A stretch of DNA of 64,000 nt from an uncultured Rhodobiaceae bacterium (GCA_937911445.1 CALDQY010000189.1:185-64184); one strand, 5' to 3'; counted from the stretch's first letter, positions 117-39,252 are shown. Translations and numbers: made by a program. Notes: generated from the sequence alone by a model not told the origin.

Positions 117-237
117 GGTGCACGGTCACAGCGAAGGTGTTTACCCGGTCCCATCCCGAACCCGGAAGTCAAGCCCTTCTGCGTCTGTCCCAATACTGTG
201 GTACGAGAGTCCACGGGAACGGCAGTCACTGTGCCCC
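117..237 (+). rRNA. rrf: 5S ribosomal RNA (stand-alone, not linked to 16S/23S in this window)
   Basis: Contains the universal 5S loop C motif 'CCGGTCCCATCCCGAACCCGGAAGTCAAGCC' and a terminal helix formed by GGTGCACGG...CTGTGCC. Length is about 120 nt. Exact ends are +/-3 nt. Confidence 0.7.
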
Positions 238-1946: not shown

Positions 1947-2660
1947 CTAGGCATGCATGCGATGAATAAGCCCCGCTCCATGTCGCTCAGCTGCTAGGAG
2001 AAGAGCGTTCAAGTGACGCATTGCATCACGAATCCCACCGTCAATTGGTTCATCTTTGGCGACGGTCCATCCTCCACCGAGCAGGCTTGAACGTAATGTT
2101 TTGACCTCTTCTGACGTGAGAAAACCCATGATGTTCAATCCGGCTTTTCCATCCATGTATCGCTCATCACCGACTTTTTCTGAATTGCAACGAGTTAGAA
2201 GATAATCGAGATGGGTGACAAGATCATCATACAATTCATTGGATTTTGATGCCACACTTCGCACATTTTCCCGAACGTACAGTATGGTCGATCCTGTTGG
2301 ATGTGGGAACCGACCAAATCGTTCCCTGTTTTTGTCCTCTCCGAGCATGATTGGAAGGTTGTCTTGGTCCAACATTCTTGTCAGTGTAAACAAAATTGTT
2401 GGATCATCCCATTGAATCATTGACCTCGAATCATATTCATCAATACCTTGCGTCCGAAAGCGCTCTTGAATCCGAGGATGCTCACACATACTTTGCCATT
2501 CATCAGACGAACCATGCTCTGCTGAAACCAACGCACCGAATACTTCCGAGAGGAGTCCTGAATGACACCCGTCTAGCGTGTAGAACGCTGTCGTGCTCTG
2601 TTGATGAGGCTTCATTGCGTAACCGACACCATCCCCTCTATTGAGGTATGTGTTCGTCAC
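1947..2660 (-). CDS. hypothetical cytoplasmic protein (no recognised family)
   Basis: 237-aa ORF. Its start overlaps the stop of the upstream giant surface-protein gene by 4 nt (ATGA-type coupling). No signal peptide. Confidence 0.5.
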   Translation of the reverse strand: MTNTYLNRGDGVGYAMKPHQQSTTAFYTLDGCHSGLLSEVFGALVSAEHGSSDEWQSMCEHPRIQERFRTQGIDEYDSRSMIQWDDPTILFTLTRMLDQDNLPIMLGEDKNRERFGRFPHPTGSTILYVRENVRSVASKSNELYDDLVTHLDYLLTRCNSEKVGDERYMDGKAGLNIMGFLTSEEVKTLRSSLLGGGWTVAKDEPIDGGIRDAMRHLNALLLAAERHGAGLIHRMHA

Positions 2661-5600
2661 TGGAAGAATTTCGACATACGTTCCTCAATGCTTGACTGTT
2701 GCACAGCATCCTCATCCGGATTCATTTCTTTGCGTAAGGAATCCAATCGGCCTGACGGTGTATTGTCCTCTTGGACAGGAATCTCCTCAATCATTGTTGG
2801 TGGAGGATTGTCATCCTCTTCGATGACCGTCGAGATGTCATCAGCAACATCGTTCGTTTCCTCTGTTGCTGTTTCAAGAGCAGTAGTTTTCTTAGAAGGT
2901 TTATCCTGCTTTGGTTTCTTTGTATTGCTTTCCTTAGCCATCGATCGAATCAGGGCGTTGTCCTGTCTTTGCATCATAAAGAGGTAAGCACCAATCAAGA
3001 CGATGGCTACCAATGCACCCCAAATGACACTCGATGATTGGATAACTGAGTCTTGATCTGCGACGAAAATCACCGATGCCGTGTCGTCGCTTACATCGTC
3101 ATCGATGTCAAAAGGACTTTCACATGCCAATACAGCATCGAGCTGCTCCTTATCAGACAAGCCACTCGCATCTATACGGACATTCGGAGAAAATTGAGGC
3201 CCAGCTATATCAATGACAATATCTGCCTTGAAATCACTACTTCGACTCGTTACAGTAAGGATACAAACAGCATTCTCCAAAACAGCATAGTTTGTTCTCG
3301 ACACTGCAACATTGATGCTGCCTTCGGCAGATATGCTGCTAATTCCGACGTTCCACCCGGACTCTTGTGCAATTACCTCTTTGTCTATGCTTGCGAGGAC
3401 ATTGCCGTACTCATCGTAAGCTGAGACAACAATCGTCAACACACCCGGCGCAGGATCCCAGTTCAGAACACTCAGGTTTGCAAACGTTGATTCGTTTTCT
3501 AAAATTGTGAATCTTGAAGTCTGGATTGGAATCGTATCTCCTCTACTTGAACTCGCGACAAACGAGAGTTTGGTGTTCTGTGTTGGATCTCCATTGACTT
3601 CGCAACTGACAACATCACCAGTGTATGTGCCTTGACCAAGTTCAGAGAAGGCAGTGTTGACAAAGGAGCATGTGACAGCCGTCTGAGGTGAATTTCTTCC
3701 GATGAGAATGAGTTGAATCCGTTCCTCACCGCTGGTAAGGTTGACGTAATTTGTTCCTTGCAAAACTGAAAACGTGTACGTGCTGTCGGAGACAGAGGAG
3801 TAGGTTCCTTGGATTTCCTCTACTCCAGTGTCGTGGATTTCAACATCCAAATTGGTATTGCTTCTTCCCCAAAGCACTGGGCTTGACAGAAACGATAAAT
3901 TTGAGGATTGGATTGTGAAGTCGAACAACTGCGTTCCGAGGTTTGAGTGCGTCACCTCGACGGTTAGTTCAACATCAGATTTGTCCCAATCGCCTGACGG
4001 CATGAGATGAATCGGAATTCCCCGAACCTCTCCTGGCACCAATTGGATTGGCGTGTCGATATTGGCAGACCAACCTTGTGGCATGTCGGGAAGAACAAAG
4101 GCAATTTCTGCCAAATCGTTGCCTGTGTTTTCGATCCATGCAAGAGGATATCCCCCTTCAGAGCTGACATACCAATCACGCTCCATTTGGAGATCATAAC
4201 TGGATGAACCGATGACGCGAACGGGCACTTCAAACACTTCAGAACCTTTACCTACAGCATCAGAAACACGAATTTTCAATATATTGACATCTCCTTCTCG
4301 GGCGTCTACTGGCGCTTCAACATAGATGTCAACTGTTGAGGTTTGACCGGGCTCCATCAGTTCACCATCTGGGAGCGTTATGTTCCATCCTTGGCCAAAT
4401 TTGGTCAAGAACGGAGTGGAGGGTGCATTCCCTTTTTGCTCGAGTTCAACTTGAATCAGATCCCCTCCGGGTGCTACTTCGAGATTGCTATTTGCTAGAT
4501 TGAGTTCCCACTCGGAATACTCCATTACAGAGAGATTCACCTCGACCACATCAAGCACATACCCGGATGATACTATTGTGTAGGTCAATCTCGCACTTGC
4601 ATCCATCCAAGCATAAGGAATGGCTTGAACGACACTCAGTGTTTCAGATGCGTTAACCGCTAACATCGATGACGTTATGGGACCATGTGTATTCCATACT
4701 GCGGTATCGTTGGATGCAGTAGTAATTGAAAGCGATGGAACAAGTTGCACATCATCAACAAAATTCCCAATGTTGGTGATGTTGAATTCGAGGACGTGGT
4801 CACTGTTTGGTTGTACATCCTGTTGTGGCCCATTGACCAAAGTAATATCCCATTCGTGCCTCTGTTCTGCTTCGACCAAAAGCGTTGTAGTCGCTGCAAC
4901 TGACTTGTTGACCATCGATGCCCATTCAAATTCGAGATAGAACGGTTGAGCAGCAGGTAGGGTACTGCTTAATTCAATGTCGAGTGGCATGATGGTCGTA
5001 GCCAAAGGCCCCAAGGTTCTGATTTGGTTGTAATAGGTAAACTGAACATCATCGGAGGAGATGGCCTCTGTGGTCATGACACTGGCAGTAAACTCATACG
5101 TGTCTTCACCGTTACCAGGATTCTCAAGCTGAATGAGGAGCTGATGAGGTGTACTCACGTTGAAGCCATGCGGTTCAAGCGATGGTTGTGGGTCAATGAC
5201 GCTCAATCCAGCCCGATGAATCTGTAGAACGTGGATGCTCAAATCAAAGGCATGGTGCGCAAGGGGAGTTTGTTCATCTGCATTGAATGTAAGCCGCTGC
5301 GGAGGTGCGTTGGTTGGAATGTAAACCTCAAGATGGACTGTGTGGATCGAATTTGAGGGACCGTTTGCGGTAAGGATTCCATTTTGTAGGCTACCTCCGC
5401 TTGTGACGTTCCACTGCCAGTTCGGGAGGGCAATATTTGCTTGATTGAGATCCCAACTTAACGTTCCCGATTGAGGCAAGAGCATCTCGAATTCAAACGC
5501 ATGTTGCATATCAGGAACCGTTCGAATGTGCACCGGTGATGTGTGCGAACCCACCGCTGTGAAATTCGCATTCAGAGAACGGCACAGGGTGTCGTCTCCG

Positions 5601-17746: not shown

Positions 17747-17829
17747 GCCGAGATCGCATAGCCTGGTAGTGCGCGCGACTGGAAATCGCGTGGGCCTGTC
17801 CCTCGGGAGTTCAAATCTCTCTCTCGGCG
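17747..17829 (+). tRNA. tRNA-Ser (anticodon GGA), type II with 14-nt variable arm; CCA encoded at 17830-17832
   Basis: Hand fold. Acceptor GCCGAGA/TCTCGGC, 3-bp D stem, anticodon stem CGCGA/TCGCG with loop CTGGAAA, long variable arm, T arm GGGAG-TTCAAAT-CTCTC. Confidence 0.75.
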
Positions 17830-17873
17830 CCAATTCACATCCCTCTCGCCTGTTTTTGGAAGACGCGAAGCGG

Positions 17874-17904: not shown

Positions 17905-17976
17905 GCCACCGTGGCTTAGTGGTATAGCACCTCATTGGTAATGAGGAGGTCGCGAGTTCGATCCTCGCCGGTGGCT
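17905..17976 (+). tRNA. tRNA-Thr (anticodon GGT); CCA encoded at 17977-17979
   Basis: Acceptor GCCACCG/CGGTGGC, anticodon stem CCTCA/TGAGG with loop TTGGTAA, T arm GCGAG-TTCGATC-CTCGC, 72 nt. Confidence 0.75.
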
Positions 17977-17989
17977 CCACCATCAAATC

Positions 17990-28995: not shown

Positions 28996-29057
28996 CCATT
29001 TTCACTTTTCAGAAGGGGTTCGCACAACGCTTCCCTAGCGTTCGTCGTTCCAACACC

Positions 29058-29351
29058 ATGGGACGAACTGTACCAACCTGGCGAGGACGCGTTGAACAAG
29101 AGATCGAAATTCTCGTACCGTACCGGCGCGCATTATCCCATGAGGATCGCTGTCGTTTTGATGCGATGCTCCATGATGTTCGAATGCGTCGAGCAGCAGG
29201 TGGCATGCTTCCTGCGCACGAGGCGTGGAGGCCGATGCTTTTGTCGATGATTCTTGGTGCTCATGAACGAATTCAAGCGCTTGAACAACGTATTGCATCT
29301 CTTCAACAACATATTTTGTCTTTGGATGGAGACGGTCATGACCAGCACTAG
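29058..29351 (+). CDS. hypothetical small Arg-rich protein, translationally coupled to the PolB gene
   Basis: 97-aa ORF. Its stop (TAG 29349-51) lies 11-23 nt inside the PolB start (ATG 29326/29338). Could be a regulator or accessory subunit. Confidence 0.35.
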   Translation: MGRTVPTWRGRVEQEIEILVPYRRALSHEDRCRFDAMLHDVRMRRAAGGMLPAHEAWRPMLLSMILGAHERIQALEQRIASLQQHILSLDGDGHDQH

Positions 29352-31731
29352 TGGCTGGATTTTGGACGCCCATCTTTGCTCAGCACAACTCGAAATGCTG
29401 GTATGGATTGTGACTGAGGAGGGCTCTGTTGTTTCATTTCGTGAGCCTTGGCATCCTACACTGCATGTCGCCGGAAGTTCATCAGATCTCGATCATCTCG
29501 TCGAATGGTTGTCGCAGCCAGAACTCTGGATACGATACGGTCTGCAACGTTATGCCTTTGAGAGAAAACGACCCGAATTGGGTTCCTTCGATACGGAACG
29601 TATGCTCGCACTTACGCTCGAATCGTCCGCTACATTACGCGCACTCGCCGAACACATCGATGCGCGTGGTGAACATGTTCGATACAACCTCTATTCCGTA
29701 GATGTTCGAGCTGAACAGCAGTACCTCACTTCGAAGCGATTGACCATTGGTTCACCTGTGTGCCTCGAAAACAACCACCTTTCGCTCTTGGAAAGAGATG
29801 TTCAACGACGTGACTGGCGATGTTGTCGACTTGAGGTTGTTCTCGAGGAGATTGGTCAAGGAGAAACGCTGTGTCGCCAGCCAACACGTGTTTTCGTTAC
29901 ACCATGCGATACGTCTGGCACCGTCACAGGGCCACAAGTTGCTTTTTTTCTGCAGCAATCCTCATCTCTCCAACAATTGGAACAGTGGTTTCAAGCGTAT
30001 GATCCTGATCTTGTGCTGTCGCTGCGTGGCGATACCGAAGGGTTTCCACATCTGTTGCGCTACGTTGAAGCCAAACATACAGCGCTCTGTCTTGGACGAA
30101 ACCAAACCCCTCTGAGACAGATTGGTCAAACGAGGATTCTTTCGTCCTATGGGCAGGTGTTGCGAAGCAATCCTCAGTTCCCACTCGAAGGTCGTATTCA
30201 TATCGATCTTTCGTCAAGTTTCATGTTTCGGGAGGGGGGACTCGATGGACTGTACGAACTTGCGCGTGTTTCTGCAACGCGAATCAGTGATGCCTCAAGG
30301 AAATCTCCGGGTTCGGTGATCAGCGCGATACAATACCGAGTAGCGATGGAAGATGGTGTGCTTGTTCCGTGGAAAAAGACGCGTCCCGAGGACACGAAGT
30401 CTGCATGGGATTTGTTGCAATCCGACCGAGGAGGGCTCTACTTGGACAGCCGGCCTGGTGTCTATGCTAACGTCATCGAACTCGATTTTGCAAGTCTCTT
30501 TCCAAGCATCATCGCAACACGCAACATCTCTCCAGAGACATTGAATTGCAGTTGTTGTCAACCGACCAAGAACACCACGCCACTACCTCTCCACCCGGAT
30601 GAAGCCAAAAAGCGGTTTCAATTGCAACAGCAGCAATGGAAATCAGCAAGTCTTGCATTTCCTCAACAGTGCTCAAATGCGTTTCAGGTCCCTGAATTAA
30701 TGACGCATACATGTGGTCGCAGGCATGGTTTTCTCGGCCGAGTCGTTGCACCTCTCATCGAACGACGTCGTCACCTTAAGCAGCAAATTGTCGTTAAGGG
30801 CGATGCCGCCGATCGTCAGCAGAACGCTCTCAAATGGCTTCTTGTCACGTGTTTTGGTTACACGGGATATCGAAACGCTCGTTTTGGTCGTATTGAAGCA
30901 CATGAAGCCATATGTGCTTGGGCTCGTGAACTTCTCTTGCAGACCATCGAATGTGCCCAAGAACGTGGTTGGGAAGTGTTGCATGCCATTGTCGACTCCA
31001 TCTGGATCCGTGATCGAGAGGGTCGTTCTCTCGAAGAACAGCATCACTCTGCGATGGATCTTTCGAATCATGTGCATAAAATGACGGGCATTCCTCTCGA
31101 ATACGAAGCAACGTACCGCTGCATTGCCTTTCTTCCAAGTCGGATGCACAGCGGTGGTTCACTGACGAAGTATTGGGCATATGGCGAGAAGGGAATGAAG
31201 ATTCGAGGGCTTGAGTTACGGCAACATTCGACGTGTCCTTGGGTTGCTCAACTGCAAACACGCGCCTTAGAAATGCTGGCGAATGCCGATGATTTGGCAG
31301 ATGGCATTCCAAGCTATCGTGTACAATGCCAAATTCAACGGCTTCTCCTCGACGAAGTGCAGCGTCTTGAACACTACCAGATACGTGCAAAGGATTTGCT
31401 CGTTGCCCAACGAATCTCTCGAAGGCCCTCTGCGAATTCCTCACAAACCGTGGCCATGTTGGCCTATCAGCGCTCAGAGTCGCTAGGTTATCCTTTGGAA
31501 TTGGCCTCAAAGGTACGTTTTGTTGTGTGCACAAAAGATGCCATTAATCCGTTGCAACGTGTTGTTCTTGCACGGGAATGTGAACACCTGGATGGTCCAT
31601 TTCGGCGCATCGATGTTGATTACTACCGTCGACTTGCTGTGCGGGCAATATGGTCGGTTCTCGCTCCATTTGGTTGGTCGGAAGAGCAACTGCTTGAGCC
31701 GCCAGTCGCTCGGCTGGAACAATGGATGTAA
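29338..31731 (+). CDS. polB: family-B DNA polymerase, bacterial Pol II-like, with substituted exonuclease and motif B/C residues
   Basis: 'QWFQAYDPDL' aligns with E. coli Pol II 'AWFANYDPDV'. Motif A 'DSRPGVYANVIELDFASLFPSII' aligns with 'DSRPGLYDSVLVLDYKSLYPSII'. Motif C appears as 'HAIVDSIW' in place of 'YGDTDS'. Motif B appears as 'KWLLVTCFGYTG' in place of 'KIIMNAFYG'. Exo I/II acidic residues are not recoverable. About 797 aa from ATG 29338. Confidence 0.8.
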   Translation: MTSTSGWILDAHLCSAQLEMLVWIVTEEGSVVSFREPWHPTLHVAGSSSDLDHLVEWLSQPELWIRYGLQRYAFERKRPELGSFDTERMLALTLESSATLRALAEHIDARGEHVRYNLYSVDVRAEQQYLTSKRLTIGSPVCLENNHLSLLERDVQRRDWRCCRLEVVLEEIGQGETLCRQPTRVFVTPCDTSGTVTGPQVAFFLQQSSSLQQLEQWFQAYDPDLVLSLRGDTEGFPHLLRYVEAKHTALCLGRNQTPLRQIGQTRILSSYGQVLRSNPQFPLEGRIHIDLSSSFMFREGGLDGLYELARVSATRISDASRKSPGSVISAIQYRVAMEDGVLVPWKKTRPEDTKSAWDLLQSDRGGLYLDSRPGVYANVIELDFASLFPSIIATRNISPETLNCSCCQPTKNTTPLPLHPDEAKKRFQLQQQQWKSASLAFPQQCSNAFQVPELMTHTCGRRHGFLGRVVAPLIERRRHLKQQIVVKGDAADRQQNALKWLLVTCFGYTGYRNARFGRIEAHEAICAWARELLLQTIECAQERGWEVLHAIVDSIWIRDREGRSLEEQHHSAMDLSNHVHKMTGIPLEYEATYRCIAFLPSRMHSGGSLTKYWAYGEKGMKIRGLELRQHSTCPWVAQLQTRALEMLANADDLADGIPSYRVQCQIQRLLLDEVQRLEHYQIRAKDLLVAQRISRRPSANSSQTVAMLAYQRSESLGYPLELASKVRFVVCTKDAINPLQRVVLARECEHLDGPFRRIDVDYYRRLAVRAIWSVLAPFGWSEEQLLEPPVARLEQWM

Positions 31732-32401
31732 AGTGGCTCAATTGTTGTTGGTCTATTGGATGGCTCGATTGTTTCATGGTCACTTGGTAAACGCCTGTGG
31801 AGCCTGTGAGCCGAAGTGTTGTTTTCTCTCGGTCCCCCCATGTTCCTTGTAATCGATGGCGAACATAAGGCCGCATCGTATGCTTGAGTTGTTGATGCAA
31901 GGGAGAGGTCGTCTTTCCATCGAGAAGAACAATTGGACAGTTTCGACCTACTTCTTCAAGCGAAGCCATGCAATGGCGTAGAATCGAACGTGCTTCAAAT
32001 CGTTTGATTTGTTCATCAAGGAACATTGCGAGCATACCATCGACAACGATCATCGATGCCTGTGTTAATGCAACCTCATGCCGAATTCTTTGGATAAGTG
32101 CATGCAGTTGATGTAAGGTGAATCCTCGCCCAATGTACAATCGACGTAACCCGTCTTCGATAGGACAATCCAGTGAACGCATGGATGGAAAAAATCCGCT
32201 TGGATCAAATCGATGACCTCCATCAATCCAATGCACAGCATGCCCTCTCGAAAGAAGAATGCTCGTCCAATGTTGAGCGAGTACTCGCCCGTCTTTTCCA
32301 AAGTATCCTGGTCCCTCGAGCAGGGTGATGCCTGTCGAAGGGATACGCAGTTCACTACGTTGTCGTTCTACTGGATGCATTGTCTCACCAAGTATTGCCA
32401 A
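31544..32401 (-). CDS. RecA-fold protein with degenerate P-loop (ImuA/SulA-like)
   Basis: 'ITLLEGPGYFGKDGRVLAQHW...HAVHWIDGGHRFDP' matches the RecA-family P-loop/strand pattern, but with GKD instead of GK[ST]. Walker-B-like 'ASMIVVDGMLAMF'. The ORF's last ~60 codons overlap the PolB 3' end convergently. Confidence 0.55.
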   Translation of the reverse strand: MAILGETMHPVERQRSELRIPSTGITLLEGPGYFGKDGRVLAQHWTSILLSRGHAVHWIDGGHRFDPSGFFPSMRSLDCPIEDGLRRLYIGRGFTLHQLHALIQRIRHEVALTQASMIVVDGMLAMFLDEQIKRFEARSILRHCMASLEEVGRNCPIVLLDGKTTSPLHQQLKHTMRPYVRHRLQGTWGDREKTTLRLTGSTGVYQVTMKQSSHPIDQQQLSHFTSIVPAERLAAQAVALPTNQMEREPTILPAQQVDGSNQHRCAEMDHPGVHIPVQEQHVATD

Positions 32402-32453
32402 TCACTGAAACCAAACCTCAGTGTTTTTGTAGGGAGTAATGGAAAAGTGAAGG

Positions 32454-33602
32454 ATGAATTTCAAACACTGTCGACAAGTGTGTCGATGTGTGCGTGAAGA
32501 GCGAATCATCATCCATTGCGACCTCGATGCATTTTTCGCATCGGTCGAAATCCTTCATCATGGCTTTCCTGAGGATGAACCGTTAATCATTGGCTCGGAT
32601 CCGATGCAAGGACGTGGCCGAGGCATTGTATCGACGTGCAACTATGCTGCAAGGGAATACGGTGTTCGGTCTGCGATGCCAATTTCTGAAGCATGGCGCA
32701 GATGTCCCGGACACCCTTTTGGCCCTGCCCGCTTCATTAGGGGTACTCGATCATTGTATTCGATGGCTTCACGACGCGTTATGAAGATTCTGAGGCAAGA
32801 TTCAGACAAGTTTGAACAGGCGAGCATCGACGAAGCCTATCTCGATGTTACTGAGATTGTCAAGCACGATTGGGATGAAGCGATGGCCCTTGCACGAAGA
32901 CTGCAACGATCGATTCATGCGAAGGTAGGCTTAACAGCATCTTTCGGAATTGGGCCAACACGAATCATAGCGAAGATGTCCTCCGAAGTGAACAAACCAA
33001 ACGGTATTCATCGAGTTCTACCCGATGAGATTTCAGAGTTCTTCGAGGCTCGATCTGTGAGAGAAGTACCGGGCATTGGTCCGAAAACTGCCAATGTTCT
33101 CTCGGAGTGGGGTGTGACAACCATGGACGAGGCCGTTGAATTGGGTGAACTCGCTCTAGCCAGAATGACATCTCGTCGATTTGCTTCTTGGTTGTTGAGG
33201 GTGGTTGAGGGTTTAACTTCCAACGATGTTAGTCCTCTAAGATCCCGTCGCTCGATTGGCAAAGAGCGAACATTTTCCAGCGATCAAAGTGATCATGAGC
33301 ATGTGCTCGAACTTCTTGAACAATTGACACAGACTGTGCTAGAAAAGGCTCGAACTGAAGGAATTGCAGGCCGTCTTGCAGAAGTCAAAATCCGGTACAC
33401 TGGTTTCGAAACACATACGCACGGACGATCAATACCTGTTGCCATGGACGATACAGATGTGTTTCTGAGACAAGTCCGCAGACTGTTTGCAGAAAACGTC
33501 CACCAGGACGAAAAAATCCGCCTCATCGGTTTTCGACTAGGGCAACTCGAAGAATTGGACTCCCGTCAAACGACGCTGGATTTTGTCGATGAATCAGAGT
33601 AA
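32454..33602 (+). CDS. dinB: Y-family DNA polymerase IV (DinB/Dpo4)
   Basis: 'IIHCDLDAFFASVE' and 'SIDEAYLDVT' catalytic motifs are intact. 'GIGPKTA' helix-hairpin-helix. Real start may be GTG 32490 just upstream of 'RIIIHCD'. Confidence 0.85.
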   Translation: MNFKHCRQVCRCVREERIIIHCDLDAFFASVEILHHGFPEDEPLIIGSDPMQGRGRGIVSTCNYAAREYGVRSAMPISEAWRRCPGHPFGPARFIRGTRSLYSMASRRVMKILRQDSDKFEQASIDEAYLDVTEIVKHDWDEAMALARRLQRSIHAKVGLTASFGIGPTRIIAKMSSEVNKPNGIHRVLPDEISEFFEARSVREVPGIGPKTANVLSEWGVTTMDEAVELGELALARMTSRRFASWLLRVVEGLTSNDVSPLRSRRSIGKERTFSSDQSDHEHVLELLEQLTQTVLEKARTEGIAGRLAEVKIRYTGFETHTHGRSIPVAMDDTDVFLRQVRRLFAENVHQDEKIRLIGFRLGQLEELDSRQTTLDFVDESE

Positions 33603-36056
33603 TTTGTGCATCCGAGTGAGGGTATCATGGAATCCAGTGAGGTTGTCTGGAATCACGATGCCTTCAATCTCAGCATTCAGCGATAAGCCGTTTTCTTTCT
33701 TCGTTTTCCAAACCTCACTGTTGAAGGATTCAATGCCTGAAGTTTTGGAATTCAAATCCTCATCGACCGATGGTAGATTGGGGAAGGAATCAACATCAAC
33801 AGCGCTCGTTCCGTAGAGCGTCATCGATATGTGATGGCAAAAGAAGGGACAAACTGGGCTGAATGCAGCGAGGAAATCACGTAGAATGCTATGAATGGTC
33901 CAAGCAGCATGCTGATCTCCATCGTACAACCGAGATTTTGCCATTTCAAGCCAATGTGAAGGCAAAATCCCAGTTCCGAATGTCTTGAGTGCCTGAGTGG
34001 CAGTGTAAATATCGAGGTTTTCCCAAGATGTTCGAACGCTTGCCATCATGGTTGCGAACTCAGATTGAATCCAACGATCTTCAATAGGATACGGTGCAGA
34101 TGGCTCATCCTCTGGACAATCAAACTGGCTGGCAAATCGGGCGACGTTGAATATCTTCGTTAGTACACCGAAGTACTTCGATTCAATTTCTTCTGGATTG
34201 ATGTGAAAATCATCTCCAACTTGAGCTTCGCATGCCTTCCACAGACGAAAACACTCACTGCCAATTTTGTTCGCTTTGAGACTGACCGAACCATCAGGTC
34301 CTCGCACCTTCCATGAACCTGTTCGTCCTCCTGCACCACATTCGAGGACACTATCTGCATCAATTCCATTTCCGAGCGATTTGGACATCTTTCTGCCCCA
34401 CGGGTCCATGCCTAGACCATCGATCCATACATGCTTGAAACCAGGTTTCTCTAGCAACAGGGCAGATTTCAGAAGGGTGTAATACAACCACGTACGAACG
34501 ATTTCTTTTCCTTGAGGGCGTAAAGCCGTTGGGAACGCCTTTTCGAAAACCTCTGGTTGGTTGAGATACCCGCTGACAAACAGATTGGAGTTGGAGGAAT
34601 CCATCCACGTATCGAAGACTTTCTCTTCACCACGGATTTGTCCCATTTGTTCTTCAAGTTCGGAATACAATCCGATGTCTTCTCTTGTGTCTCGCTGCAG
34701 AACTCTCGACCCTTCAGGAGGTGCGTCCTTCCACGGCTGTACATAGGTTCCAGCTGGTGGAACGATGATGTGTTCCTCGTCTTCGGAGTACCAAATTGGA
34801 ATTTCAGTGTGGTACCATCGTCGTCGTGATATTGGCCAATCGATGCTGATGTTGTCCATCCAATCCAACAAGAATTGTCGGTTGCGCTGCGGGTGGAATT
34901 CGATCTGTTCAATCAAGTCGAGCATCTTGTCTTGCATGTGTGTTTGGCGAACGTACCATTCCTTCAGTAGGATGATTTCGACAGGATTCTTTCCTCGTTC
35001 TGAAACGGGAACTTCTTGCTGTCGCTCTTCAATGGCATCGATATTGCCCTCCATTTCCAACATCTCGATGGCTTTTGCACGGGCATCAAGGACGGATAAC
35101 CCTTCAAGTGGACCCGAGATTGAGGTCATGCATCCGTTCAAATCGATCGCTTGGAATGGTGCTAGGCCTAGTTCTCTGAAGACTGCGACGTCGTTTTGAT
35201 CACCGAACGAACAAACCATGAGAATTCCACTTCCAAACTCGGACTTGACCGATGGGTGTGTCTGTATTTCAACGGATTGTGCACGTCCGGATACTGGCAT
35301 TGGAAGAATGGCTTTCTTCCCAACAAGGTGTTGGTAACGCTGGTCATCTGGATGAACAACAACGACGCCACAAGCGCAAATCAATTCCGGCCGAGTTGTC
35401 GAGATAACAAGGTCCTCACCGTCTTCGGTCGTCCAACGAACATCAACCAATTTGGTCATTCGACCAATTCGCTCCACTTCAGCATCAGCAATGGTCGTTC
35501 CTTCGACTGGGTCGTAGATGTTGGGTCTCAAATCTTCGACGATGTCTCCTTTCTTGAACAGTTCAATGAAGATTGATTGGGTTACTGATCTGTAATCAGG
35601 AGCGTCGGTGAGATACTCTGCGGCAAAATCGCAAGATAGGCCAACACGAGCAGCAGTTTTTCGCATGGCTTGTGTGAACGTCTCGATCGTTTCACGACAT
35701 AAATTGAGAAACTCTTCTCGGCCGTATGTCTTCATTTTCCGCTTTGTGTTCTTTTCGACGGTGAATTCAATATTGATTCCGTTCCGATCCACACCCCAAG
35801 GGAAGTAGACTTCCTTACCAAGCAATCGCTGAGAACGTGCCAGAACATCGATCATCGAATATTGTGCAACAGCGCCAATGTGCCACGTTCCCGATGGGTA
35901 TGGAGGTGGTGTGTCAATCACAAAAATTGGTTTCCCACTCTGTGGATTGAAACCATATCGTTGTTGATAGGCATTTTCATCGGCGTAATGTTGTTCTTGT
36001 ATGCTCTTTTCGAGGTCGATTGACCATCGCTTTTCTGGAAGTCGAGGCGTTCCCAT
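33594..36056 (-). CDS. valS: valyl-tRNA synthetase
   Basis: 'PPPYPSGTWHIGAV' HIGH region. 'TTRPELICACGVVVVHPDDQRY' (ValRS 'TTRPET...VHPED'). 'KMSKSLGNGID'. Start set at Met 36056 (MGTPRLPEKRW). The upstream 64 codons are probably not translated. Confidence 0.8.
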   Translation of the reverse strand: MGTPRLPEKRWSIDLEKSIQEQHYADENAYQQRYGFNPQSGKPIFVIDTPPPYPSGTWHIGAVAQYSMIDVLARSQRLLGKEVYFPWGVDRNGINIEFTVEKNTKRKMKTYGREEFLNLCRETIETFTQAMRKTAARVGLSCDFAAEYLTDAPDYRSVTQSIFIELFKKGDIVEDLRPNIYDPVEGTTIADAEVERIGRMTKLVDVRWTTEDGEDLVISTTRPELICACGVVVVHPDDQRYQHLVGKKAILPMPVSGRAQSVEIQTHPSVKSEFGSGILMVCSFGDQNDVAVFRELGLAPFQAIDLNGCMTSISGPLEGLSVLDARAKAIEMLEMEGNIDAIEERQQEVPVSERGKNPVEIILLKEWYVRQTHMQDKMLDLIEQIEFHPQRNRQFLLDWMDNISIDWPISRRRWYHTEIPIWYSEDEEHIIVPPAGTYVQPWKDAPPEGSRVLQRDTREDIGLYSELEEQMGQIRGEEKVFDTWMDSSNSNLFVSGYLNQPEVFEKAFPTALRPQGKEIVRTWLYYTLLKSALLLEKPGFKHVWIDGLGMDPWGRKMSKSLGNGIDADSVLECGAGGRTGSWKVRGPDGSVSLKANKIGSECFRLWKACEAQVGDDFHINPEEIESKYFGVLTKIFNVARFASQFDCPEDEPSAPYPIEDRWIQSEFATMMASVRTSWENLDIYTATQALKTFGTGILPSHWLEMAKSRLYDGDQHAAWTIHSILRDFLAAFSPVCPFFCHHISMTLYGTSAVDVDSFPNLPSVDEDLNSKTSGIESFNSEVWKTKKENGLSLNAEIEGIVIPDNLTGFHDTLTRMHKLL

Positions 36057-36189
36057 GCTTAACACCGGCCCTGCCCCCTGTGAACGGGGGGGTCCGATTG
36101 ACCCTGTGTGCGTTTCTTTTTCAACGGTTCCCTCACAACGAGACAGCAATACTTTCAATGAAAGACCCGAGGGGCTACTGGGTAGCCGT

Positions 36190-39100
36190 ATGCCGGAAGA
36201 CGCCGAAGACACAACATCCTCCCATGGTGAGGAGGACGTTGGACGCATTCAGGCGATTGCTGACTACAGTCGAGAGCGTGTACGAGTAGCCTCGGTTGAC
36301 ATCTCTGCCCGAGTGCGTGACTTTGATGCAAAAAAGGCAGTTGATGCAGTTCTCGAAGCTCCGAAGAGGTTGAAACGGGAATGGCAAAAAACCGGAGCAA
36401 CAGGTGTTATCACACGTTTTCCGATTGCAACAGTGGCCTTGTTTTTGATGATCACATTGTATTTTGTCACAACGTCAGGATTCCTTGACGACACGCAGTT
36501 TGATGATGATCCGAACGAACCTGCACTCAATGTCAATGGTGACATGGAAGTATACCTCCCAGATGGGAGTGAAGTCAAGGAACTAATCGAAATGGTTGAA
36601 GCGGATTGGACGACCAACGTTATGGTCATTTACATAGAATCGGATAAAAACAACATAACTGACCAAAGGATTTTGCAAGAAATCAGTTATGTTGAAAAAA
36701 GCATCAATCCTTATGTCTCTGACAATGAAAGCGATGATGTCATTTACATTCTTTCAATTTCGACGGTACTGAAGGAAATCAATTCAAGTTTGCCGCGTGT
36801 ACGTGACGCTTTCATCACCGAGTTGGGTCGCCAATGCCCATCTTTCCAAGAGGTCTGTGAGAACTTCGCCGCTAGTGTCAACACGGCATTGTCGGCAGGT
36901 GATGACCAATTTGCTGGTGGTTACGAAATTCCTTCCCAGACAACCATCGATTTGATCATCGGTGAAATGTACGAAAACGATGGGTCTCCTACGCCAGGTC
37001 TGGATAAACTCGCACGGAATACCAATGCATGCAGCGGCCAACCGAACGATGAAGGTACTGATGACAACGGTTGTTTTGATGGCGAGGACTTGAAACTCGA
37101 TCGAGCCATTATGGCAGTTGCAGTTGTCGACTCTATCGAGGCCAAAGATATCATCGAGGCAACACAACAACGCCTTGACAACATCTCGACCGAACAGCGT
37201 CCATGTGAATTCGATCAAAACGGTAACCCAGCGAGTGCTGACCGTTGTACCTGGGACGATCTTGGCCTGAAAATGACTCTTACAGGGCCCGTTCCCATTA
37301 CGAATTCTGTGACCGAGTTTTCGTTCCGTTTGTTCTGGGAAATTTTCCCGCTAGCAGTTGTCCTTGTCGCTATTGGTCTCTTTGTCTTCCACTCAGATCT
37401 TCTGCAAGCAGGTATCTCTGGTATACGCCCAATTCAAGGAATCAAAGTCGTCATCATTGCCGGTCTTCCAACACTGTGTGCAGTCTTTTGGACATTGGGA
37501 ATTATCGGGGCATCGAATTATGAAGTGACGATGACGGTCATTATCGTGGGTCCAATTTTGCTTGCATTAGGTGTCTCGTATGGTTTGCACATCACCAACA
37601 GATACGCTGAAGAAGAAGGTAGCAGAACCGAAAAGATGCAAGCTTCGATGAAATCAACTGGTCGTGCTGTTTTCTTATCTGCTGTCACAACCGTCATTGG
37701 ATTTATTTCACTGATTTTCACGCCTATGGCGCCAATCAAAACCGTTGGTATTGCGCTTTCAGGTGGAATTGTCATCGTCTACATCCTGACGATGTTTATG
37801 GTTCCAAATCTTACCCTGATTCTTGATTTACGTAAACCGAAACATCCTCCACTGAAAGTGTTTGATGCTGCTGTTGACGTACCGGTCAAACGCAACCGTA
37901 GTCTTATTGCGTTCTTCCTAATCCTGGTATTCGTTTCAGCAACGCTTGGCCAGTCCAATGTTGAAGAAAACATCGACCTGCTGGGTATGGCTCCTGAAGG
38001 TGAGCAACCGGTCATCAAGATGAAACAATACAGTCGTGAGTTCAATGCAGGCCAAATCGGTATGGTTCTTGTCCACGCAAACGTATCTGGCGATGTCACC
38101 GACAACGACCCAACCAATGATGATCCCGCTCAAAATCTGAAAATCATTGACGGCCTAGAGAGGAATCTCAATACTGTTGAAAATGCATCTGCTGTTTCTG
38201 TCGTGTTCCTCATGAAAGCAACTGGACTTGCCCCTACTCTCTCTGGTCAACCACTCCTTGCACAAATTCAAGAGATTCCTGGCTATGATATTCTACCAGA
38301 GGATGTTCGCAACACCTTCGAAGTCTTGCTTGATCAAGAGGTAACACAAGGTGCAACATTTTGGGATTTGCTGACCACTCCTGAAGAATTTGGCTTGCCG
38401 GGTTCAACGCAGAGTCAAATTTTCTTGCTCGATGTATTCTACTCTTCTCTGACAAAAGAAATGCGTGAAATTTTCATCAATTCGGATTATGATCGAACGC
38501 TGATTTACATCGACATGCCATTTATTCCTGTTGCTGATACCGCAGTGGCTGTTGATCAAATCAACGAATACTCTGAGGGATTCCAAGGTACGCATCAAGA
38601 ACGTGCTGAAAAACTGACAGGAGTCGCTGCAACCGCTATCGAAGTCAACAAATTGATTGTTGATTCGCAATGGACCTCACTCGGATTCGCCATCGTGCTT
38701 ACGCTGATTGTACTCGCCGTCGTGTTCAGAGACATTCGGTATTCACTCTTGACGACATCACCTGTGATTGCTACCGTTGCACTCCAATGGCTCGTTATGT
38801 GGCAAATGGATGTGCCATTATCCCTCGTAACCGTCATGATCGGATCGATTCTTGTTGGCGTCGGGGTCGACTTTTCGATTCACATCGCCAATCGTATACG
38901 TGAACTTGGCGGTGGGATTGAGGCGATTCGTTCTGCAGCGGTTGGAACAGGAATGTCGCTGTTTGAGGCTGCAGTCGTCACATCGCTTGGTATGTTTACT
39001 GCCTATCAAATTCCAATTCCTGAAATCAAACCTTTCGTGACGGTTATCCTCATTTTGCTCTGGGTTGCAGCAGCAAGTGCTTTGCTCCTCCTACCCGCTA

Positions 39101-39252
39101 TTTTCGTTACACTCGAGAAACTTGGAATCGGAGTTGTCGGTGGACCTTCTGCAATGTCAAGACGATTGGGACTTGGTAAAATGAAAGCAGATGACCCAGA
39201 CGTTTTGGAAGCCGTTCTCATCCACGAACCGAGCAACAAAGAAGCGTGGTGA
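36190..39252 (+). CDS. RND-superfamily / MMPL-type exporter (two 6-TM bundles with large extracytoplasmic loops)
   Basis: Duplicated TM blocks, e.g. 'FLSAVTTVIGFISLIF' and 'GSILVGVGVDFSIHIANR'. Large acidic loops. Start at ATG 36190 avoids overlap with valS. Confidence 0.75.
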   Translation: MPEDAEDTTSSHGEEDVGRIQAIADYSRERVRVASVDISARVRDFDAKKAVDAVLEAPKRLKREWQKTGATGVITRFPIATVALFLMITLYFVTTSGFLDDTQFDDDPNEPALNVNGDMEVYLPDGSEVKELIEMVEADWTTNVMVIYIESDKNNITDQRILQEISYVEKSINPYVSDNESDDVIYILSISTVLKEINSSLPRVRDAFITELGRQCPSFQEVCENFAASVNTALSAGDDQFAGGYEIPSQTTIDLIIGEMYENDGSPTPGLDKLARNTNACSGQPNDEGTDDNGCFDGEDLKLDRAIMAVAVVDSIEAKDIIEATQQRLDNISTEQRPCEFDQNGNPASADRCTWDDLGLKMTLTGPVPITNSVTEFSFRLFWEIFPLAVVLVAIGLFVFHSDLLQAGISGIRPIQGIKVVIIAGLPTLCAVFWTLGIIGASNYEVTMTVIIVGPILLALGVSYGLHITNRYAEEEGSRTEKMQASMKSTGRAVFLSAVTTVIGFISLIFTPMAPIKTVGIALSGGIVIVYILTMFMVPNLTLILDLRKPKHPPLKVFDAAVDVPVKRNRSLIAFFLILVFVSATLGQSNVEENIDLLGMAPEGEQPVIKMKQYSREFNAGQIGMVLVHANVSGDVTDNDPTNDDPAQNLKIIDGLERNLNTVENASAVSVVFLMKATGLAPTLSGQPLLAQIQEIPGYDILPEDVRNTFEVLLDQEVTQGATFWDLLTTPEEFGLPGSTQSQIFLLDVFYSSLTKEMREIFINSDYDRTLIYIDMPFIPVADTAVAVDQINEYSEGFQGTHQERAEKLTGVAATAIEVNKLIVDSQWTSLGFAIVLTLIVLAVVFRDIRYSLLTTSPVIATVALQWLVMWQMDVPLSLVTVMIGSILVGVGVDFSIHIANRIRELGGGIEAIRSAAVGTGMSLFEAAVVTSLGMFTAYQIPIPEIKPFVTVILILLWVAAASALLLLPAIFVTLEKLGIGVVGGPSAMSRRLGLGKMKADDPDVLEAVLIHEPSNKEAW

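Follow-up and report, generated by a model that had tools for sequence, protein, structure and literature searches.

A very likely PolB2 mutasome module with DinB as its neighbor in a genome segment of Candidatus Poseidoniaceae

Among archaea and some bacteria, Makarova et al. (2014; PMC4104785) linked PolB2 genes to a small alpha-helical protein, arCOG07300, and to inactivated RadA paralogs. Timinskas et al. (2025; PMC11791011) named these partners PPB2 and iRadA and modeled a heteropentamer of PolB2, iRadA and three copies of PPB2, the 'PolB2 mutasome'. The features described there are the hallmark MGRT arm of PPB2, with Arg3 and Arg9; a polymerase whose DxD motif has in most members lost its first Asp to another residue (IID in S. 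islandicus; IVD and IID are both listed as motif C forms in the supplement) and whose exonuclease domain has decayed; an iRadA that lacks both the N-terminal domain and the ATPase residues; and, in a fraction of members, PCNA-binding motifs, whose PIP class is described in the same paper, in iRadA or more rarely in PolB2. Its supplement contains Poseidoniales operons classed as '3b (PPB2-PolB2-iRadA)' together with their sequences, and the modeled Poseidoniales complexes have ranking scores of 0.83–0.87. According to PMC11791011, PolB2 arose in archaea and reached bacteria by transfer. The Sulfolobales homolog Dpo2, as summarized in PMC11791011, is an active polymerase with an IID motif, is the sole damage-induced polymerase, serves chiefly in extension and is needed for targeted mutagenesis; PMC6061795 likewise covers the damage induction and the need in mutagenesis. 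Here we analyzed a four-gene locus in the middle of a 64-kb stretch of DNA (GCA_937911445.1, CALDQY010000189.1:185-64184; the whole stretch is called the window below). Its first three genes very probably form a PPB2-PolB2-iRadA module, that is, a known system in an order of archaea that had already been sampled, because all three proteins match Poseidoniales sequences of PMC11791011 and share the defining motifs. The initial annotation of this DNA had supposed the architecture to be undescribed, but both papers describe the three-gene system, Poseidoniales included.

The genes of the locus are arranged as follows.

29058..29351, plus strand: PPB2 gene, 97 amino acids (aa), taken from the open reading frame (ORF) listing
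29338..31731, plus strand: PolB2 gene, 797 aa, start placed by homology
31544..32380, minus strand: iRadA gene, 278 aa by homology; the ORF extends to a TTG at 32401 (285 aa, 31544–32401)
32454..33602, plus strand: DinB gene, 382 aa, taken from the ORF listing

The initial annotation had reported four adjacent genes with no unrelated gene between them, and the ORF listing agrees, with all four ORFs at the coordinates it gave and no further gene interposed; it was silent on the minus-strand position of iRadA. It was also right that the stop codon of the 97-aa protein (29349–29351) lies inside the start of the polymerase gene, the overlap being 14 nt. The PolB2 start was placed by homology at the ATG at 29338 (797 aa, as in the 95%-identical protein P0075; relatives have 797–799 aa), with an alternative at 29326. 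For iRadA the start is most likely at 32380, as most homologs are 278 aa long. The iRadA gene is convergent with PolB2, the 3′ ends overlapping by 188 nt, and divergent from DinB, with an intergenic region of 73 nt in the window's clade. The module thus has two transcription units, one with PPB2 and PolB2 (plus strand) and the other with iRadA (minus strand).

The 97-aa protein is PPB2 ('partner of PolB2', arCOG07300). Its N-terminus is MGRTVPTWRGRVE, which begins MGRTVPTWR and has both Arg3 and Arg9, and BLASTP aligned it with the Poseidoniales PPB2 listed with operon EHR76801 in the supplement of PMC11791011 (54% identity, E = 2e-32). Local Pfam and NCBIfam scans of this protein gave nothing significant, the local Pfam copy apparently being without PF26485; precomputed annotations place PF26485 (DUF8156) on PPB2 homologs, one of them 98% identical to the window protein. 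The AlphaFold2 (AF2) model is all-helical with a C-terminal helix of 39 residues, at a mean predicted local distance difference test (pLDDT) score of 80.8. The protein thus has the published PPB2 form: helical, of the class of about 90 aa, with the MGRT arm and the two arginines.

The polymerase, first taken to be Pol II-like, matched Pfam DNA_pol_B (E = 1.7e-26) and scored at most 78 bits on the NCBIfam Pol II models (NF004421, 78 bits vs. a cut-off of 570). Two families named 'type B DNA-directed DNA polymerase', PRK05761.1-4 and -2, were its best NCBIfam models, at 363 and 351 bits and in each case under the cut-off. A profile of 16 relatives searched against the PDB favored Thermococcales PolB (E about 1e-48) over E. 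coli Pol II (E = 5e-19). Over its N-terminal 399 residues the window protein shares 42% identity with the PolB2 EHR76801 of PMC11791011 (E = 1e-93). We read its motifs from an alignment to Pyrococcus PolB and from a family alignment of the 16 relatives. Motif C reads as follows:

30988..30996, plus strand: PolB2 motif C, I551-V552-D553, with IVD replacing the canonical DTD (HAIVDSIWI aligned with YIDTDGLYA of Pyrococcus PolB)

None of the 16 relatives departs from V552 or D553. By motif C, the NCBIfam models and the match to EHR76801, the polymerase is assigned to the PolB2 group. In motif A the Asp is retained as D383, with SLYPS changed to SLFPS, and motif B reads KWLLVTCFG in place of KxxxNSxYG. 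The catalytic Asp of Exo II is replaced by Gly (GDTEGF vs. GDNFDF in Pyrococcus PolB) and the DxE of Exo I by DxR (SVDVR). These readings essentially bear out the earlier remark that the Exo I/II acidic residues and the motif B/C residues are substituted. From the alignment, which covered Exo I and Exo II, the proofreading exonuclease site is predicted to be lost. E. coli Pol II is likewise a family-B enzyme, implicated as an 'extender' in damage tolerance, but it is a single subunit with an active 3′–5′ exonuclease, whereas the exonuclease residues are replaced in the window PolB2, which is not of the E. coli Pol II type. An invariant D363-R364 stands directly before the GG of the YxGG region; this candidate D(K/R) motif was found by inspection, and D-R also occurs in published Poseidoniales and Thermoplasmata PolB2 sequences.

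The loss of the first Asp of DxD and of the exonuclease residues would also fit an older view, the interpretation given in PMC4104785, in which PolB2 is catalytically dead and the triad has a structural or regulatory role, for example in the handling of replication forks or the regulation of origins. D383, D553 and the motif B lysine K499 are, however, invariant in the relatives, and Sulfolobales Dpo2 is active and needed for targeted mutagenesis with the same kind of substitution (IID; summarized in PMC11791011). We consider a dead polymerase very improbable.

A Cys-bearing stretch was also seen in PolB2 residues 404–459 (30547–30714). It lies between motif A and the part alignable with Pyrococcus PolB (about residue 445 onward), and much of it falls outside the aligned segments. 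C404, C406, C407 and C459 are invariant in Poseidoniales relatives, and the stretch may be a metal-binding element.

The third protein is a RadA/Rad51-like inactivated core (iRadA), as identified by profile search, by structure comparison and by its match to a published member. In its 285-aa form it had no Pfam or NCBIfam match, ImuA included. A profile of 18 iRadA homologs matched the RadA ATPase domain in the PDB (E = 6.3e-5), and BLASTP showed 38% identity (E = 2e-33) to EHR76800, the iRadA of PMC11791011. The AF2 model has a confident core at residues 17–210 (pLDDT about 70–90), and the top Foldseek matches were XRCC2, RadA and Rad51 (E = 5e-10 to 1e-8, probability 1.0). The initial annotation had described a RecA-fold, ImuA-like protein with a degenerate P-loop and had proposed a Foldseek comparison; the RecA-superfamily fold and the degenerate P-loop stand, but the likeness to ImuA does not, the best structural matches being to the RadA/Rad51 group. 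The RadA N-terminal domain is absent, with the core starting near residue 17 and residue 47 aligned with RadA residue 165. Walker A reads GPGYFGKD against the consensus GxxxxGK[ST], and a published relative has GYGHAGRS. The window protein retains the Lys of Walker A and the Asp of Walker B (D121), and its 'inactive' status is therefore a presumption.

Both the polymerase and iRadA bear PIP-like motifs at the level of sequence pattern, a combination that is rare according to PMC11791011.

31705..31728, plus strand: PolB2 C-terminal VARLEQWM, a degenerate PIP-like (PCNA-binding) motif
31727..31750, minus strand: iRadA PIP-like motif Q218-x-x-L221-x-x-F224-T225 (QQQLSHFT), a sequence pattern

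In the 18 iRadA homologs L221 and T225 are invariant and F224 nearly so, and in the 225-aa forms of iRadA the motif stands 5–8 residues before the C-terminus. PolB2 relatives at 47% identity finish in QPSLLDFV, QPTLLSFM or QPSLLEFI, which are canonical QxxLxxF[VMI] endings, and this pattern points to possible PCNA binding by the PolB2 C-terminus. The window iRadA continues for 60 residues past its motif. In the window's clade this tail is antisense to the C-terminal codons of PolB2 (31544–31731), and AF2 pLDDT is below 50 from residue 211 onward. The iRadA/PolB2 overlap is 0–71 nt in other clades vs. 188 nt in the window, and the apparent conservation of the tail may reflect no more than constraint on PolB2. 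As a separate observation, the two PIP-like motifs lie nearly back to back on opposite strands.

Conservation of the arrangement was assessed in 90 related loci, in which nine window proteins were placed by tblastn. The genome-contig scan used the PolB2 alignment and kept the best 80 of 355 loci; the kept loci were all from Poseidoniales, and at least one partner gene stood beside PolB2 in 76 of these 80. PPB2 followed by PolB2 and then by a convergent iRadA was kept in all 52 loci with both flanks adequate (52/52), at PolB2 identities of 44–96%. Adjacency of the triad in the related loci was independent of the flanking genes, and iRadA was always convergent. As the order and orientation of the three genes are kept in related Poseidoniales loci, the arrangement is not a product of chance.

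The host is archaeal, from Candidatus Poseidoniaceae (Marine Group IIa), because the polymerase is 94–96% identical to metagenome-assembled genomes titled Candidatus Poseidoniaceae, which agrees with the earlier statement that the organism is otherwise archaeal. The window is a housekeeping stretch of a Poseidoniaceae genome. Identified neighbors include eIF6, SAICAR synthetase, RtcB, alanyl-tRNA synthetase, a NUDIX protein, an S8 peptidase, a 2-hydroxyacid dehydrogenase (2-Hacid_dh), valyl-tRNA synthetase (ValRS), an MMPL transporter and an EVE-domain protein; no orc1/cdc6, LexA, SRAP or DUF72 neighbor was found among the window genes scanned. Sigma-70 promoter, intrinsic-terminator, Rfam and tRNA scans returned nothing relevant in the locus.

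The fourth gene encodes a DinB protein that held the sequences DLDAFFASVE and SIDEAYLD, which we take to be the catalytic motifs of Pol IV; D23, D25 and the D and E of SIDEAY were read directly. The protein passed the NCBIfam equivalog for DNA polymerase IV (NF002677, 276.4 bits vs. a cut-off of 256) and has the Pfam domains IMS (E = 2.7e-38), IMS_C (E = 1.8e-22) and IMS_HHH. By these signatures it is classed as an ordinary, catalytically intact Y-family Pol IV; its catalytic residues had already been judged intact, and the equivalog score and the motifs confirm this. Because it is catalytically intact, it is not an analog of ImuB.

At its C-terminus, DinB ends in ...RQTTLDFVDESE, which is like the QxxLxxF[VMI] of the PolB2 relatives with one residue fewer between Leu and Phe. 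This motif may be clamp-binding.

Whether DinB belongs to the module is a different matter from its identity. All four genes could be one mutasome cassette in which DinB is integral and co-selected, either as an ImuB-like partner or as the obligatory inserter for a PolB2 extender. Among loci with at least 2.5 kb downstream of PolB2, DinB is indeed directly adjacent in 54/72 (PolB2 identities 44–96%), and in another Poseidoniales clade the triad lies directly downstream of a photolyase gene, a hint of siting beside damage-related genes. DinB is, however, absent from the other 18/72, always and only together with loss of ValRS, 2-Hacid_dh and MMPL, and the triad is unaffected: where both flanks were adequate, 41 loci had the triad with DinB, ValRS and 2-Hacid_dh, 11 had the triad alone and none was mixed. 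In a neighbor-joining PolB2 tree the DinB-less loci form one large and one small clade. For other phyla we took the DinB linkage from Table S1 of PMC11791011, where IMS is near polB2 in only 4/1375 group-1a and 6/187 group-4 operons; in the group-3b operons (n = 95) it counts IMS 46 times, 2-Hacid_dh_C 45, tRNA-synt_1 42 and Lactamase_B 32. By these counts the DinB adjacency is already tabulated, though undiscussed, and is lineage-specific. DinB is catalytically intact, unlike ImuB, and DNA damage does not induce the Y-family polymerase gene of S. islandicus, whereas it does induce dpo2 (PMC6061795). It is the triad that moves and is inherited as a unit, and DinB belongs to a conserved housekeeping block of 2-Hacid_dh, triad, DinB, ValRS and MMPL; it is a lineage-specific neighbor rather than a demonstrated fourth component of the module. 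A check of PolB, RecA-like and DinB co-conservation, proposed in the initial annotation, thus came out in two parts: the first two genes, with PPB2, are kept together in every adequately flanked locus, and DinB comes and goes with the flanking genes.

The photolyase context was seen in 11 DinB-less loci, all of one clade (L042, L044, L048, L052, L054, L056 at 2563–4545, L061, L064, L069, L081 and L084), in which PPB2 is immediately preceded, on its own strand, by a DNA photolyase-family gene (PF00875, 31 bits vs. a cut-off of 26.6). Farther upstream lie genes that, by visual inspection of the sequence, are phytoene desaturase/synthase-like. Two of roughly five distinct genomic contexts put the triad beside a damage-related gene, which is suggestive and not significant.

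A short element was found upstream of both transcription units of the triad.

29001..29010, plus strand: TTCACTTTTC element, PPB2 copy, 48 nt upstream of the PPB2 ATG; candidate promoter or regulatory element
32442..32451, minus strand: TTCACTTTTC element, iRadA copy, 62 nt upstream of the iRadA ATG (32380) and, on the other strand, 2 nt from the DinB ATG

The exact 10-mer has only these two copies in the window; nine one-mismatch copies were present, at chance frequency and all within ORFs. The core TTCACTTT was then sought within 200 nt upstream, counting non-identical upstream regions of the related loci. It was present in sense orientation upstream of PPB2 in 60/75 regions and upstream of iRadA in 58/76, and in none of 253 upstream regions of six control genes. 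The element is kept in both genomic contexts while the intergenic sequence around it diverges, and its usual form in other clades is TTTCACTTTCA.

Two other explanations of the element were considered and rejected. A terminator of the upstream 2-hydroxyacid dehydrogenase gene, whose stop lies 6 nt before the PPB2 copy, was rejected because the iRadA copy follows no same-strand gene and the PPB2 copy persists under a different, divergent upstream gene. A general promoter motif was rejected because the controls were 0/253, the one-mismatch copies lie inside ORFs at chance frequency, and the photolyase promoters of related loci have a TATATA box of the usual kind. A sequence weakly resembling the element, ahead of the photolyase genes, was not conserved.

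Since they appear to share a specific TTCACTTT(T)C cis-element, the two transcription units are probably co-regulated, and the common control is probably damage-responsive. The position of the iRadA copy bears on the four-gene cassette as well. In the window's clade a factor bound there, 2 nt from the DinB ATG, could act on both genes; but sense-oriented copies were found upstream of DinB in 0/53 regions, the antisense copies (42/53) being the iRadA element itself, and in clades at 44–48% PolB2 identity the element is about 150 nt from DinB. Taking gene linkage and element together, we find a four-gene cassette distinctly unlikely, and retain the three-gene module with DinB as its neighbor.

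In Sulfolobales an ANTTTC element at −23 to −55 from the start codon is bound by Orc1-2, which is needed for dpo2 induction (PMC6061795). The element described here is likewise short and T-rich and lies 48–62 nt upstream; TTTCACTTTCA includes ACTTTC, which fits ANTTTC, and in the window only the PPB2 copy has a fitting hexamer (ATTTTC, 28998–29003). The Sulfolobales system has a homologous polymerase module but belongs to another phylum, and an Orc1/Cdc6 gene is near 0/95 of the group-3b operons (Table S1, PMC11791011). We treat the six-base resemblance as a lead only. A further step, which we hold to be tentative and rather unlikely, would make TTCACTTT(T)C an operator that governs a DNA-damage (UV) regulon in Poseidoniales, much as Orc1-2/ANTTTC does in Sulfolobus; in the window's clade the 2-nt spacing would couple DinB expression to the mutasome, coordinately or reciprocally. 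If this were true, the locus would be a translesion island with inserter and extender under joint regulation, in an archaeon that ranks among the most abundant of the surface ocean.

Compared with the published group-3b PolB2 mutasome (PMC11791011), the window has the same three families in the order PPB2, PolB2, iRadA, and shares the MGRT arm, motif C as IVD, the dead exonuclease, a RadA core without its N-terminal domain, the degenerate P-loop and PIP-like motifs. It differs in that iRadA is on the opposite strand and convergent, whereas the paper describes the genes as co-oriented 'in most cases', in carrying PIP-like motifs in both PolB2 and iRadA, and in the shared TTCACTTT promoter element; PMC11791011 contains no promoter analysis and does not describe such an element.

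By analogy with this system, PolB2 would be a family-B translesion polymerase that lacks proofreading and works chiefly by extending primer ends that are mispaired or distorted by lesions. The polymerase would dock one iRadA and a PPB2 trimer, with the MGRT N-terminal arm of one PPB2 subunit inserted between PolB2 and iRadA near the DNA, and the PIP-like motifs of iRadA (QxxLxxFT) and of the PolB2 C-terminus would tether the complex to PCNA. DinB might act as a lesion 'inserter' that cooperates with the PolB2 extender, a plausible split given the parallel with eukaryotic Y-family polymerases and Pol zeta. We infer complex formation, stoichiometry, polymerase activity and damage induction from published work on homologs. 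Our confidence in the identity of the module is high, and it is lower for these details.

Several points weigh against this interpretation. The three genes are not a single operon here, because iRadA is on the opposite strand. In the PIP-like motif of iRadA, Thr occupies the place of the last aromatic residue and the long tail comes after the motif; that of the window PolB2 is without the Gln. The D(K/R) motif and the beta-alpha iRadA-docking motif of PolB2 were located by inspection alone and are candidates. The shared element touches the DinB start codon in the window's clade, so that co-control of DinB is possible. The mechanism proposed for Poseidoniales is transferred from experiments in Sulfolobales and from AlphaFold models.

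A bacterial origin was also weighed, in which the locus would be a horizontally acquired ImuA-ImuB-DnaE2-like mutasome with PolB replacing DnaE2. What speaks for it is a general likeness of layout, in which a RecA-fold protein adjoins a Y-family and an error-prone polymerase. The RecA-fold protein matches RadA/Rad51 and not ImuA, however, the Y-family protein is an active-type Pol IV above its equivalog cut-off, the locus has no C-family polymerase, and the transfer of PolB2 ran from archaea to bacteria (PMC11791011). The base composition of the locus is unremarkable and gives no support for horizontal transfer (GC 0.48–0.51 vs. 0.44–0.50 elsewhere in the window). This origin is already contradicted by the evidence and we give it practically no credence. 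The initial annotation had called the locus a putative mutasome cassette with PolB in the 'DnaE2 slot'; a damage-tolerance module analogous to the bacterial mutasomes, as published, is upheld, and the slot is unsupported.

The analogy of the PPB2-PolB2-iRadA module to the E. coli Pol V mutasome (UmuD′2C-RecA) and to ImuA-ImuB-DnaE2 is one of outline: an error-prone polymerase, with a RecA-family subunit docked through an oligomerization-like motif, and a small subunit that extends an N-terminal arm to the active site (the parallel is drawn in PMC11791011). The differences are that the catalytic subunit here is of family B and not Y or C, that the RecA-family subunit is an inactive RadA paralog and not the recombinase of the cell or ImuA, and that PPB2 is unrelated to UmuD′.

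The finding itself changes little, adding one more Poseidoniaceae example of the PolB2 mutasome. The system is otherwise known, and the new items are the conserved upstream element, the photolyase neighborhood and the antisense-overlapping iRadA tail. Poseidoniales are abundant, uncultured archaea of the sunlit ocean, in which DinB is the neighbor of the mutasome in most lineages and a photolyase takes that place in another. The element offers a handle on an archaeal DNA-damage response outside Sulfolobales and haloarchaea.

Some further observations concern the neighboring genes. The ValRS ORF (33594–36248, minus strand) convergently overlaps the DinB stop by 9 nt. It is listed at 884 aa vs. 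820–830 aa in relatives, and at this length it runs about 250 nt into the beginning of the divergent MMPL ORF (36001–39252, plus strand). Because the long form exceeds the relatives and overlaps MMPL, the real ValRS start is probably a downstream ATG. Elsewhere in the window, a tRNA-Ser(GGA)/tRNA-Thr(GGT) pair lies at 17747–17832 and 17905–17979 (plus strand), and a 5S rRNA gene stands at the window start (118–237, plus strand) apart from any adjacent 16S or 23S gene.

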